A stretch of 64,000 bases of DNA from Chloroflexota bacterium (GTDB lineage Bacteria; Chloroflexota; UBA11872), in NCBI GenBank assembly GCA_965208215.1, contig CBDBOH010000003.1:1470880-1534879 (forward strand). The letters are read 5' to 3'. Position numbers and translations under genes: made by a program. Shown piece by piece: positions 47,588 through 49,883 of the stretch (positions within the stretch are counted from its first letter, which is position 1; every line of letters starts with the position of its first letter). The notes below the pieces were generated by a model, which saw only the letters and a program-made list of their open reading frames with translations, ran no database searches and had not been told where the DNA came from.

Positions 47588-47659
47588 AAGGCGTCGATCG
47601 GCAGCCGTGAACGTCGAGGTTTCGGCTTGCCTGGGCGGGCGCGCCCGGCGGGCCTGGCG

Positions 47660-48004
47660 CTATTGCAGCGCGGACATCGCGTAGACGAACGCCACGAAAA
47701 GGAAGATGACCAGACCCCAAACAATGACCGGGATACCGAGGAAGCTCCCGCTGGAACCGGGCGAGGCCTGGGTCGGCCGCTGCTGCGCGCGTTCCCGCTC
47801 GGTTCGGTCACGCAGCCGGCGCAGGTTTTCGCTGATCTGGGGTGCGAAGCGACTGGGCTCGTCGCTTTCGGCCGCCGATCCGGCTTGTTGCCCCGACGTC
47901 TCCGCAGCCTGTTCCTGATCCTCCGGCCTCGGCAACTTCGCCCCGCAGTTGATGCAGAGCCAGGCACCCTCGGTGTTCTGGTGGTCGCACTCTTGACAGC
48001 GCAT
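47660..48004 (-). CDS. zinc-ribbon domain protein with C-terminal TM anchor
   Basis: MRCQECDHQNTEGAWLCINCGAKL ... GIPVIVWGLVIFLFVAFVYAMSALQ. Confidence 0.55.
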   Translation of the reverse strand: MRCQECDHQNTEGAWLCINCGAKLPRPEDQEQAAETSGQQAGSAAESDEPSRFAPQISENLRRLRDRTERERAQQRPTQASPGSSGSFLGIPVIVWGLVIFLFVAFVYAMSALQ

Positions 48005-48105
48005 GGCGCTCCGGTTCGGCCCGTGAGTTGCTGGTGGTGATTCATGCTAGCACCAGGCCGGGCGGGTGGCCGGAGGCGGAAATTGGCGGGGGGGGTGAAG
48101 GGGGG

Positions 48106-48158
48106 AACTGTCTCTCGCCAGCCCGCCCCCAGAGGGGGCGGGCTGGCGAGAGACAGTT
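48106..48158. repeat. perfect 25-bp inverted repeat with 3-nt loop (AACTGTCTCTCGCCAGCCCGCCCCC aga GGGGGCGGGCTGGCGAGAGACAGTT), flanked by G-runs
   Basis: Read directly from the sequence; no mismatches in the stem; no U-tract on either strand. Confidence 0.8.
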
Positions 48159-48532
48159 TGGGCGGATCTCTTGGGGGGTCGGCGACGAAAGTCGGGGCTG
48201 AGAGGGGGCGGCAGAACGGTTCCGGGGACGCCGGGTGCGCGGGCGCGCCGAGGGGGTGGGGCGGAAGCGTCTCAACCGGAAGTAGCCGGCATGAAACCGG
48301 CTCTTACGCAAGGTCAGGAACGAGCGGCGACGCTCGGTGACGGAAGGAGCGAGCAGGCGGAGGAGGCGGGCGAGCACGATGGTTCCGGGGGATGGACTGG
48401 GATAGGATGCCTCTAGTGTACACGATATGGTTACGAAGAGCAAGGGTGATGGGAGGAGGCGTGCGAGGAGCCGGGGAGGAGAGGACGCGAGGATGGCGAG
48501 GCCAGGAAGAAGCGGGGTGAGCGCGGCCTGGG

Positions 48533-48660
48533 ATGTGTTCAGTCGATTGGGGCGATGTGTTCAGTTTTTGGCCGAATGTGTTCAGTTTCCGGCCCGATGT
48601 GTTCACATTTCGGCCGGATGTGTTCACTTCTGAGGGTCAGGTGTTCAGTTTCGGGCGAGG
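48533..48660. repeat. array of 6 direct repeats with 21-bp period (consensus ATGTGTTCAGTTTYSGGCCGR)
   Basis: Units start at 48534, 48555, 48576, 48597, 48618 and 48639. Confidence 0.8.
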
Positions 48661-48741
48661 CGCGTCCCCCCTCACGGCCCCTTCGACAAGCTCAGGGCAG
48701 GCTCTTCGGCACGCTCAGGACAGGTCTCCGGGGACGCCGGG

Positions 48742-48868
48742 ATGTGTCCACTCTGTCGGGCCGATGTGTCCAGTTTTTGGCCGGATGTGTCCACTTTTCG
48801 GCCGAATGTGTCCAGTTTCGGGGGCAATGTGTCCACTTTGGCGGGGGAGGTGTCCAGTTCTCGGCGGC
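48742..48868. repeat. second array of 6 direct repeats with 21-bp period (consensus ATGTGTCCASTTTYSGGCCGR)
   Basis: Units start at 48743, 48764, 48785, 48806, 48827 and 48848. Begins 209 bp after array 1, and a similar ~130-bp tail follows each array. Confidence 0.8.
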
Positions 48869-49060
48869 GGGCGTGCCCTCGGTTCAGGGGCGACGGGATG
48901 GGACGGCCGCGGCCGGGGATCGGGCGCGGAAGGAAGTCGAGCCCCCCATTCGACAGACTCAGGGCTGGCTCTCGGCGGCCCCCGGGATGACAGAGAGGGC
49001 GGTTGCGGGGTTGAACAAGGATGGGCGGTGGTACTTGCCAAGGAGATTACGGTGGATTTG

Positions 49061-49083
49061 GCCCAATAAGGGCTATATTGGGC
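49061..49083. promoter_or_regulatory. palindromic operator-like site GCCCAATA-agggcta-TATTGGGC upstream of the antitoxin gene
   Basis: Perfect 8-bp inverted repeat with 7-bp spacer, 25 nt upstream of ATG 49108. Confidence 0.5.
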
Positions 49084-49107
49084 TGGATGAGTTCGAAAGG
49101 ACTTCGT

Positions 49108-49440
49108 ATGCGTGGGCGTGAGGCGGTGACGGAGCGGGTGGCGGCGTCGCAGGCGAAGCGGGATTGGAGCAAGGTGATTAACCGCGCCTTCAGCGGCGAG
49201 GTCCGGTTTGTGGTGGAGAAGCATGGGACGCCGGTGGCGGGGATCGTTTCGGCCGACGACATTGAACGGCTGGCCGCGCTGGATGCGCGATGGGCCGAGG
49301 GACACGAAATCCTGAAGCGGTTCGGTCGGGCGTTTCGTGACCAGACAGCGGAAGAGATCGAGGAAGCCGTAGCTCAAGCGGTCGCCGAAGTGCGAGCCGA
49401 GAATCGAAGCGGGGCGGAGCTTCAACCTGTGCCTGAGTGA
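49108..49440 (+). CDS. Phd/YefM-like type II antitoxin
   Basis: MRGREAVTERVAASQAKRDWSKVINRAFSGEVRFVVEKHGTPVAGIVSADDIERL. SD AAAGGA upstream; stop overlaps the PIN gene start. Confidence 0.6.
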   Translation: MRGREAVTERVAASQAKRDWSKVINRAFSGEVRFVVEKHGTPVAGIVSADDIERLAALDARWAEGHEILKRFGRAFRDQTAEEIEEAVAQAVAEVRAENRSGAELQPVPE

Positions 49441-49883
49441 TTCGCGTCGTCGCGGACACAAATGTCCTGGCGTCGGGGCTGGCCGGATATGACGCTTTGG
49501 ATGGTCCGGCTGCGTATCTCCTGCGGGCGTGGCAGCAACGGCGCTTTGATCTCGTAGCGTCCGGCCCAATCTTCGAAGAACTCGAACGGACGCTTGCGAA
49601 GCCGTACTTCACGCAGCGCCTCGGGCCAACGGGCGCTTGGCGAGCGTTGGATTTTGTTCGCGAGGGCGCCCTATTGGTGATCGAGTTGGCCGACGTCCGG
49701 GGCGTGGCCACGACGCCGGCTGACGACTTGATCCTGGCTACCGCAGTCGCGGGAAGGGCGAGTCATCTCGTCACGGGCGATCGTCAGCTTCGCAACCTGG
49801 GCGAGTACCAGGGCGTGAGGGTTGTTGGACCGCGTGCGTTTGTGGACTGGCTGGATGCGGGGATGCCTGGGGATGTGGGGTGA
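49437..49883 (+). CDS. PIN-domain toxin (VapC-like)
   Basis: MIRVVADTNVLASG...DLILATAVAGRASHLVTGD. Confidence 0.7.
   Translation: MIRVVADTNVLASGLAGYDALDGPAAYLLRAWQQRRFDLVASGPIFEELERTLAKPYFTQRLGPTGAWRALDFVREGALLVIELADVRGVATTPADDLILATAVAGRASHLVTGDRQLRNLGEYQGVRVVGPRAFVDWLDAGMPGDVG

Follow-up and report, generated by a model that had tools for sequence, protein, structure and literature searches.

The window, that is, the whole stretch of 64,000 nucleotides that was analysed, is chromosomal. The region considered here lies between two groups of genes: on its left, the minus strand encodes a zinc-ribbon protein (47660-48004), a MidA-type methyltransferase, a fumarase and an ABC transporter, and on its right the plus strand encodes a Phd/PIN toxin-antitoxin pair (49108-49883), a Zn_ribbon_8 protein, a D-Tyr-tRNA deacylase and a histidinol dehydrogenase. 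Close homologues of the methyltransferase come from MAGs of Chloroflexi/Chloroflexota bacteria sampled from marine sources and sponges. The intergenic region contains the following features, in which the letters A to E refer to the modules and spacers described below:

48043..48051, minus strand: extended -10-like motif of the zinc-ribbon gene, TGcTAGCAT, between the hairpin and the gene (a reading of the motif only)
48088..48105, plus strand: 5' flank of module A, G8-TGAA-G6, with columns at least 90% conserved in an alignment of 50 copies (A1)
48106..48158, no strand: perfect palindrome of 53 nt (25-nt arm, AGA, 25-nt arm)
48159..48178, plus strand: 3' flank of module A, TGGGCGGATCTCTTGGGGGG, with the T-run degenerated in the window copy
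48179..48372, plus strand: spacer B, not conserved in sequence among paralogues but always richer in G than in C and purine-rich on this strand
48373..48448, minus strand: module C, carrying a sigma-70-like promoter motif and present in 47 of 52 cassettes
48449..48530, plus strand: spacer D, purine-rich (here GC skew +0.57, purine fraction 0.79)
48531..48650, plus strand: iteron array 1, six units of 21-22 bp with the core ATGTGTTCA(G/C), the last unit being degenerate
48678..48728, plus strand: accessory motif TTCGACAAGCTCAGGGCAGGCTC, present twice between the arrays and once more at 48945-48972
48740..48865, plus strand: iteron array 2, six units of 21-22 bp with the core ATGTGTCCA(C/G)

The two arms of the hairpin (48106-48130, AACTGTCTCTCGCCAGCCCGCCCCC, and 48134-48158) are exact reverse complements separated by the 3-nt loop AGA, as the original prediction had described them. 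Folded as single-stranded DNA, the 86-nt hairpin region reaches -36.7 kcal/mol, compared with -15.2 +/- 2.3 kcal/mol for 200 shuffled sequences (z = -9.5), none of which folded as well. It is also the only perfect inverted repeat of its kind of at least 14 nt in the 64 kb, the next-best candidates, 71-93% complementary or a 14-nt palindrome, being far from its equal. The G-runs announced in front of the hairpin are present (G8 at 48088-48095 and G6 at 48100-48105), and the purine bias announced over about 350 nt behind it extends over the 373 nt that separate the hairpin from the first iteron (68% purine, GC skew +0.40). The hairpin does lie away from gene ends, its nearest gene being the zinc-ribbon ORF on the minus strand, which points away from it.

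Two other statements of the original prediction fared less well. The suggested G-quadruplex potential was not borne out: no canonical motif (four tracts of three or more G, loops of 1 to 7) occurs on either strand between 47900 and 49100, and a quadruplex at this place would require the hairpin as a 55-nt loop and a third G-tract that is not conserved in the family. The absence of a T-tract is correct for the window copy, where the stem is followed by TTTGGGCGGATCTCTT (tails TTTGGGCGGATCTC on the plus strand and CCCCCCTTCA on the minus strand), but not for the family consensus, which has a run of T5-6 on the plus strand, 8-9 nt past the stem, within DNA of 67% GC. The consensus of the 5' flank is G5-(A)TGA(A)-G5-6 and that of the 3' flank TTnGGCGGA-T5-6-GGGG (alternatively written TTGGCGGA-T5-6-G4). 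The nhmmer match of the module A profile in the window (48091-48172) covers the 5' flank. Finally, the search for a known structured RNA gave 0 families at the gathering threshold of Rfam 15 over the window, the sub-threshold matches being generic hairpin models that scored less than half their thresholds.

The hairpin is the terminal module of a conserved, composite non-coding cassette of about 0.7-1.2 kb, which recurs in intergenic DNA all over the chromosomes of a clade of Chloroflexota from marine habitats and sponges. Its elements follow each other in the order (A) hairpin module, (B) G-rich spacer, (C) promoter-like module, (D) G-rich spacer and (E) iterons. When non-orthologous copies of one genome were compared by BLAST, the modules aligned and the spacers did not. 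Spacer B has a median length of 195 nt, a mean GC skew of +0.38 and a purine fraction of 0.67 (47 copies); spacer D, which often includes a TTCGACAAGCTCAGGGCAGG motif, has a median length of 156 nt and a mean GC skew of +0.34. Module E consists of one or two arrays of 21-bp iterons (ATGTGTYCAS), all of them direct repeats, which belong to two sequence types placed mostly in separate blocks. The logo of 609 units reads R-A-T-G-T-G-T-Y-C-A-S-T, with spacings of 21 bp (345 cases), 22 bp (68) and 23 bp (28), and the number of iterons per locus varies from 2 to 12. In the window, the exact core ATGTGT(T/C)CA(C/G) occurs 10 times when 0.25 occurrences are expected. K-mers related to the accessory motif were found in about 18 of the 52 loci. 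Frames without stop codons run across the cassette and make up the largest "protein clusters" among the neighbours. We consider these long frames as artefacts of the strand-asymmetric composition and rejected a coding cassette: no frame survives the iteron periods, which are 21, 22 and 23 bp, and the first base of the NTG in module C varies.

A scan of one genome per species that required two adjacent iteron cores collected at least 105 loci, most of them in about 20 Chloroflexota MAGs that are mostly sponge-derived. The analysed set comprises the 87 loci with three or more iterons, all from about 20 Chloroflexota MAGs, with at least 5-9 loci per genome. A blind search for perfect stems found, at most loci, one palindrome of 22-30 bp located 270-1800 nt upstream of the arrays (in the orientation of the iterons), the median distance from hairpin to array being 461 nt. 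The module A profile identified 55 full copies in the 87 loci and 9 copies cut within the hairpin by a contig end or a gap; 18 loci have too little upstream sequence and 5 are truly devoid of module A. Module A is thus found upstream and in the same orientation in 64 of the 69 informative loci (93%). In the reverse test, a hairpin-only pattern searched against metagenomes returned two contigs, one of which (L116) carries iterons about 320 nt downstream of the hairpin while the other stops at the hairpin. These results support a probable functional link between the hairpin and the downstream repeat arrays. The original prediction had asked whether dispersed identical copies would reveal an ordinary repetitive extragenic palindrome: copies are indeed numerous, but they are not identical and the unit is far larger than a REP. 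No plasmid, phage or viral contig carrying the cassette region was found in the collections searched.

Cassettes lie beside the same genes in several species. At the locus of the window, the relatives L003 (92% amino acid identity) and L001 (90%) have the same intergenic region of about 1.1 kb, with the hairpin in the same place; in L004 (77%), only 204 bp separate the two genes and the cassette features are absent; in L118 (83%), other repeat modules are present and an AT-rich perfect palindrome replaces the hairpin; and in L119 (80%), the sequence breaks off in a poly-G artefact at the very position of the hairpin. When the window is compared with L003, iterons and hairpin flanks are conserved like coding DNA (93-97% identity for array 1), whereas the spacers show 57-82% identity. 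The TGcTAGCAT motif of the zinc-ribbon gene is conserved in the window, in L001, L003, L118 and L119 and in the cassette-free L004; this gene has its own conserved promoter motif and therefore does not need the cassette.

At other loci, the neighbouring genes are unrelated to each other and are overall metabolic and housekeeping genes: an AMP-binding enzyme (acyl/acetyl-CoA synthetase-type), sulfite/nitrite reductase, SecD, M3 peptidase, oxidoreductases, sulfatase, S15 peptidase, nitroreductase and MoeA. Among them, no gene family travelling with the cassette (transposase, Rep or regulator) was found. In about 41 of 51 loci, and in about 20 of 27 independent loci when orthologous loci were grouped manually, the minus strand encodes the gene adjacent to the hairpin, with a predicted start 43-180 nt away; the neighbour on the array side shows no orientation preference. 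The flanking DNA has the same sign of G over C as the cassette in 68 of 82 loci. With few loci per complete chromosome, cassette orientation followed no consistent two-replichore pattern.

Stem length across the family ranges from 22 to 30 bp, with a mode of 25-27. In alignment A1, 98.7% of the cells are paired, compared with 86.3% in shuffled alignments and 28-46% in slid registers, so that the stem exceeds both controls for a base-pairing constraint. Double changes affect 13 of the 20 stem pairs (103 cells), a value reached by none of 500 shuffles, and 6 of the 20 pairs are invariant. One-sided changes of the G-U type are absent from the 1000 cells, the frequent swaps being GC<->CG and UA<->AU. 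As A1 had been picked for perfect stems, we also checked the set defined by the nhmmer profile: in 53 of its 58 full-length copies, the stem is an uninterrupted Watson-Crick helix of 22 bp or more, and the exceptions contain mismatches or bulges and no wobbles. Among the orthologues, the stems of the window, L003 and L001 differ by paired changes only and their flanks are conserved. L003 has a C11->G change and one inserted A, both mirrored in the opposite arm; in L001, where an assembly gap (N10) takes the place of the loop, each of the five or more differences has its mirror image. Paired changes that occur without G-U intermediates point to copying from arm to arm at the DNA level, in which a change in one arm would be passed as its complement to the other by template switching or by hairpin-templated correction. 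Stepwise compensatory evolution through G-U intermediates does not fit the changes in the stem. Template switching has been described as a maintainer of perfect hairpins (PMC8794818, PMC7202029). The covariation is the mark of a DNA-level homogenising process, which is compatible with a selected function in DNA as well as in RNA and does not by itself decide between them.

Module C spans about 75 nt (aGCATGGaGnTCCGGGG...A(G/T)TGTACAC-N4-TGATTACGA-NN-GGCAAG) and always lies on one strand, between the hairpin and the arrays. Read on the minus strand, it gives TTGCCn-N17-TACA(C/A)T, pointing at the hairpin. In 60 aligned copies, the TTG of the -35 element and the positions T-12, A-11 and T-7 are at least 90% conserved and the spacing of 17 nt is fixed. 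The window copy has a -35 element TTGCTC (48443..48438), a 17-nt spacer and a -10 element TACACT (48420..48415); it agrees with the sigma-70 consensus (hexamers resembling TTGACA and TATAAT, 16-18 nt apart) at 7 of 12 positions and remains below the cut-off of a strict sigma-70 scan, which called no promoter between 47600 and 49300. No consensus RNA structure was predicted in module C by RNAalifold. From these features we infer that module C is an active promoter and that its RNA exists, with a predicted start near 48408 in the direction of the hairpin. The corresponding minus-strand RNA from 48408 to 48159 (the left part of module C and spacer B) would contain 119 C and 55 G in 250 nt. With C outnumbering G about 2.2-fold, the stretch that links module C to the hairpin is rut-like and unstructured in character; in the predicted fold of the RNA the hairpin is the dominant structure, the remainder being weakly structured. 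The bias of G over C on the plus strand is also present in spacer D (+0.34, versus +0.38 in spacer B), and this composition is therefore not specific to the proposed transcript.

These comparisons establish how the cassette is built and conserved, which rules of orientation it follows, how its stems covary and that it carries a promoter motif. We propose, with a probability of roughly one in three, that the hairpin acts as an RNA processing or barrier element on a minus-strand cassette transcript initiated at module C. According to this proposal, a putative DNA-binding regulator would attach to the iteron arrays, which lie upstream of the promoter, and the promoter would fire leftward to produce about 250 nt of untranslated, C-rich and G-poor RNA that runs into the hairpin. 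The perfect dsRNA helix of 25-28 bp would then be an RNase III substrate, a strong pause or an exonuclease block; being long enough for each of these, it would cut or halt the RNA from the cassette ahead of the promoter and coding sequence that belong to the neighbouring gene. Exact palindromy would be preserved at the DNA level, either through template switching within a strand or through correction of one arm by the other. The simplest reading that uses every module is an insulated transcription unit of this type, small in size. We infer the participation of RNase III or of Rho, and proteins may bind the iterons. Stems of 22-30 bp are longer than terminators need and of a length that would suit RNase III substrates (about 20 bp or more of uninterrupted dsRNA); Rho, for its part, loads on C-rich untranslated RNA. 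The bias toward a co-directional neighbour suggests that the hairpin might govern the share of this transcript that reaches the gene.

Several observations are in favour of such an RNA barrier: the fixed order from module A to the arrays, module C in 47 of 52 cassettes, the C-rich leader, the strand bias of the neighbour, perfect stems held at 22-30 bp, and modules conserved like coding DNA when the spacers are not. Others are against it. No U-tract follows the hairpin on the minus strand and the conserved T-run is on the opposite strand; wobble-free stems with GC<->CG and AU<->UA swaps fit a DNA constraint at least equally well; about one quarter of the independent loci have a convergent gene or no gene beside the hairpin; the zinc-ribbon gene has its own promoter motif and the neighbours are functionally unrelated; and the promoter is a motif only, uncalled by the strict sigma-70 scan, with the bias of G over C extending upstream of it.

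Two known systems resemble the proposed unit. Correia elements (NEMIS) of Neisseria are the closest precedent for the mechanism: these intergenic repeats carry promoter elements, and their long hairpin is co-transcribed with the neighbouring gene and cut by RNase III. However, they are MITEs of 100-155 bp that have an IHF site and target-site duplications and whose hairpin arises from terminal inverted repeats, whereas the cassette has one internal palindrome, iteron arrays and no terminal inverted repeats. Rho-dependent terminators, in which a pause hairpin comes after a C-rich rut region, recall the predicted untranslated RNA of the cassette (about 250 nt on the minus strand, C/G about 2) with its strong hairpin; in the cassette, the bias of G over C also reaches upstream of the proposed promoter.

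A rather unlikely alternative is a DNA-level element: a cruciform, or a single-stranded hairpin formed during replication, would be read by a structure- and sequence-specific protein (a nucleoid protein, a recombinase, an HUH-type enzyme or a topoisomerase), and one chromosomal device would unite it with the protein on the iterons and with the G-rich, strand-asymmetric DNA. The lack of any wobble in 1000 cells together with many transversion swaps fits this view well, as such exact symmetry indicates that the arms template each other in DNA, and the six invariant pairs of the 20 indicate a sequence-specific constraint in addition. The asymmetric conserved flanks, including T5-6 in DNA of 67% GC, the asymmetry of G over C on both sides of module C and throughout the cassette, and the common sign of skew in the flanks (68 of 82 loci) are also consistent with it. 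Nevertheless, template switching would keep any long palindrome perfect, with or without a function, GC-rich stems of 25 bp with 3-nt loops extrude slowly as cruciforms, no gene for a candidate protein is linked to the cassette, and the local skew shows no clean replichore pattern on complete chromosomes.

It is also unlikely that the cassette is an intergenic mosaic comparable to BIME or BOX elements, for the most part neutral or selfish, whose modules would spread by duplication and recombination and whose hairpin would affect neighbouring transcripts incidentally. Reusable modules and a variable tandem copy number, which are characteristic of such mosaics, are present: an AT-rich palindrome and an upstream module are shuffled and occur with or without module A, the number of iterons goes from 2 to 12, the neighbour genes are unrelated, and the MidA/zinc-ribbon locus itself varies between no cassette (L004), other modules (L118) and the full cassette (L001, L003 and the window). 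A neutral origin accounts poorly for cassettes that several species share at orthologous positions, their spacers drifting and their modules as conserved as coding DNA, and for an order, strand and spacing that are strict in 93% of the loci. In addition, no terminal inverted repeats and no transposase were found, nor a target-site duplication, although of the relatives compared at this locus L004 is too diverged to reveal one and L118 carries other modules. A MITE or an IS200/IS605-derived PATE was rejected as well: there is one hairpin, the iterons are direct repeats, and paralogues share the modules only (70-90% identity).

Compared with the known families of this kind, the cassette resembles the REP/BIME of enterobacteria in being dispersed, intergenic, multi-copy and non-coding, with a palindrome and short motifs in mosaic order; REP/BIME can stabilise or terminate transcripts and bind proteins. 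REPs are imperfect palindromes of about 20-40 nt that usually occur in clusters of alternating orientation and in hundreds of copies, whereas each cassette has a single perfect palindrome (53 nt in the window) with asymmetric conserved flanks, always accompanied by a promoter-like module and, at a distance of several hundred bp, by arrays of 21-bp direct repeats. A REP or REPIN was rejected, the 53-nt palindrome having one copy in 64 kb and one per locus, tied to modules; no RAYT-type gene was seen among the cassette neighbours. The BOX elements of Streptococcus pneumoniae (boxA-boxB(n)-boxC) are likewise modular, with a tandem middle module of variable number, lie beside unrelated genes and are able to influence their expression. 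They measure 100-600 bp, have a repeat unit of 45 bp instead of 21 bp and no sequence relationship with the cassette, and lack the long perfect palindrome and the conserved promoter motif that it possesses. Dispersed mosaic intergenic repeats around a palindrome (REP/BIME, BOX, Correia) are thus already known as a kind. For the combination and size seen here, we found no counterpart in Rfam, in the plasmid and phage collections or in the literature that we searched: an asymmetrically flanked, perfect palindrome of 53 nt is associated with a G-rich tract, a motif for a promoter and arrays phased at 21 bp, and the whole is retained at orthologous sites in different species.

An improbable variant reverses the direction of transcription: the cassette would give a rightward G-rich non-coding RNA, in which the hairpin would serve as a stabilising stem-loop at the 5' end or, together with the T-run, as an attenuator. 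In 68 of 82 loci, cassette and flanks are G-rich on the same strand, a result that co-directional transcription would lead one to expect; this and the T5-6 run after the hairpin on the plus strand would fit such an RNA. Yet no conserved promoter motif lies upstream of module A, where conserved sequence starts no earlier than 15-40 nt ahead of the stem, the T-run stands 8-9 nt off the stem with no terminator-like site called, and Rfam gave no match.

The chances are slimmer still that the hairpin is an ordinary, possibly bidirectional, intrinsic terminator for the flanking genes. About 10 of 51 loci do have a plus-strand gene whose end lies 26-164 nt ahead of the hairpin, and some high-GC bacteria use GC-rich "I-shaped" terminator hairpins. 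In the window and at most loci, however, no gene ends at the hairpin, its stem of 25-28 bp is far beyond the need of a terminator, a U-tract is adjacent to it on neither strand, and its tie to module C and to the iterons would be left unexplained. The scan from 47600 to 49300 returned 0 terminator-like sites, in agreement with the original prediction that this is not a canonical terminator; the intrinsic-terminator assignment was thus rejected for want of such a site, of a U-tract within 0-2 nt of the stem and of a gene end.

A replication origin or a single-strand initiation site with iterons, proposed for the hairpin before the other copies were known, is very improbable: the hairpin with its tandem 21-bp direct repeats recalls plasmid origins and the locus is at a switch of gene orientation, but an element that recurs at many chromosomal sites (at least 7-9 loci per genome) is not a one-off origin, and it has no Rep gene, no DnaA box, no AT-rich unwinding element, no inflection of the cumulative GC skew at 48 kb and no plasmid or phage relatives, the whole cassette being absent from the same locus in the 77%-identity relative L004. 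Specifically, no DnaA box within one mismatch and no AT-rich stretch were found near the region, and the cumulative skew climbs steadily through 48 kb; a plasmid-type iteron origin or an oriC was accordingly rejected for this multi-copy element without initiator gene. When the iterons are read as DnaA boxes in the best orientation, one type matches at no more than 7 of 9 positions and the other type at fewer still. The cassette does resemble iteron plasmid origins and clusters of DnaA boxes (datA, DARS) in its helically phased, non-coding tandem direct repeats of 21-22 bp, and differs from the former by the missing initiator gene and AT-rich region and by its many copies per chromosome, and from DnaA boxes at two or more of the nine positions.

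We tentatively regard it as possible that the cassette represents a previously undescribed chromosomal class in which palindrome, G-rich tract, promoter and iterons form an insulated regulatory or chromosome-organising unit; the same joint reading comprises a self-homogenising palindrome, at least ten sites per genome, a putative iteron-binding protein and uncultured sponge-symbiont Chloroflexota as hosts. A functional cassette would provide an uncultured, ecologically important lineage of symbionts with a portable unit of regulation or structure, whose anatomy would be unusually clear for testing (promoter motif, processing hairpin and arrays of binding sites). Independently of function, the more than 50 hairpin copies spread over several species constitute a natural data set on perfect palindromy, which bears on the debate between template switching and stepwise compensatory mutation in the upkeep of long hairpins. 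In practical terms, these palindromes break short-read assemblies of the MAGs that carry them and seed spurious ORF calls.

The iterons of the window (48531-48865) and of the 87 related loci are of two types, TGTTCA and TGTCCA, which are mostly found in separate blocks, and the order of these blocks differs from locus to locus. Both in the window and in L003, which carries the same cassette at the same locus, each iteron block is closed by a degenerate unit, AGGTGTYCAG/AAGTGTYCAG. An accessory motif is located beside the arrays of the window, and k-mers related to it are present in about 18 of 52 cassettes:
Window 48678-48705: accessory motif TTCGACAAGCTCAGGGCAGGCTC
Window 48701-48728: same motif
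Window 48945-48972: same motif

The hairpin of module A is not the only perfect palindrome associated with these cassettes. A second one, AT-rich and composed of AAGAGTTTTTT-CC-AAAAAACTCTT, stands, at the MidA/zinc-ribbon locus of L118, where the G+C-rich hairpin would be, and is also found upstream of module A in four other loci (L027, L066, L068 and L096). The AT-rich palindrome is another reusable module:
L118:3310-3340, minus strand: AT-rich palindrome

A Phd/YefM-PIN toxin-antitoxin pair directly follows the iteron arrays of the window (49108-49883). The same arrangement was found in L016, at the corresponding locus (Phd identity 99%), and in L043, from another MAG (identity 83%). This pair is a recent insertion adjoining the arrays, since L001, L003 and L112 lack it at this locus.

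Contigs of short-read MAGs often terminate, hold N-gaps or enter poly-G artefacts exactly inside the G+C-rich palindrome. The assemblies of these genomes are fragmented by the hairpins, as in the following cases:
L001:9296-9305: N10 gap in the hairpin loop
L119:1-110: contig running into a poly-G artefact at the palindrome
Contig starts of L021, L045, L053 and L115: assembly break at the palindrome

In addition, a 6.8-kb contig with a typical cassette (L094, JAJDZN010000236.1) was binned as Bryobacterales and is probably a mis-binned Chloroflexota contig.

Considering strand composition, the DNA flanking the cassette on either side shares its G>C sign at 68 of the 82 loci, with a mean skew of +0.07. 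The positions of cassettes on complete chromosomes, available for few loci, did not resolve into two replichores. Within the window, all genes between 24 and 48 kb are carried by the minus strand, but the GC skew is negative in 23-31 kb only and turns positive across 31-48 kb. The C-rich strand therefore encodes genes over about 17 kb.
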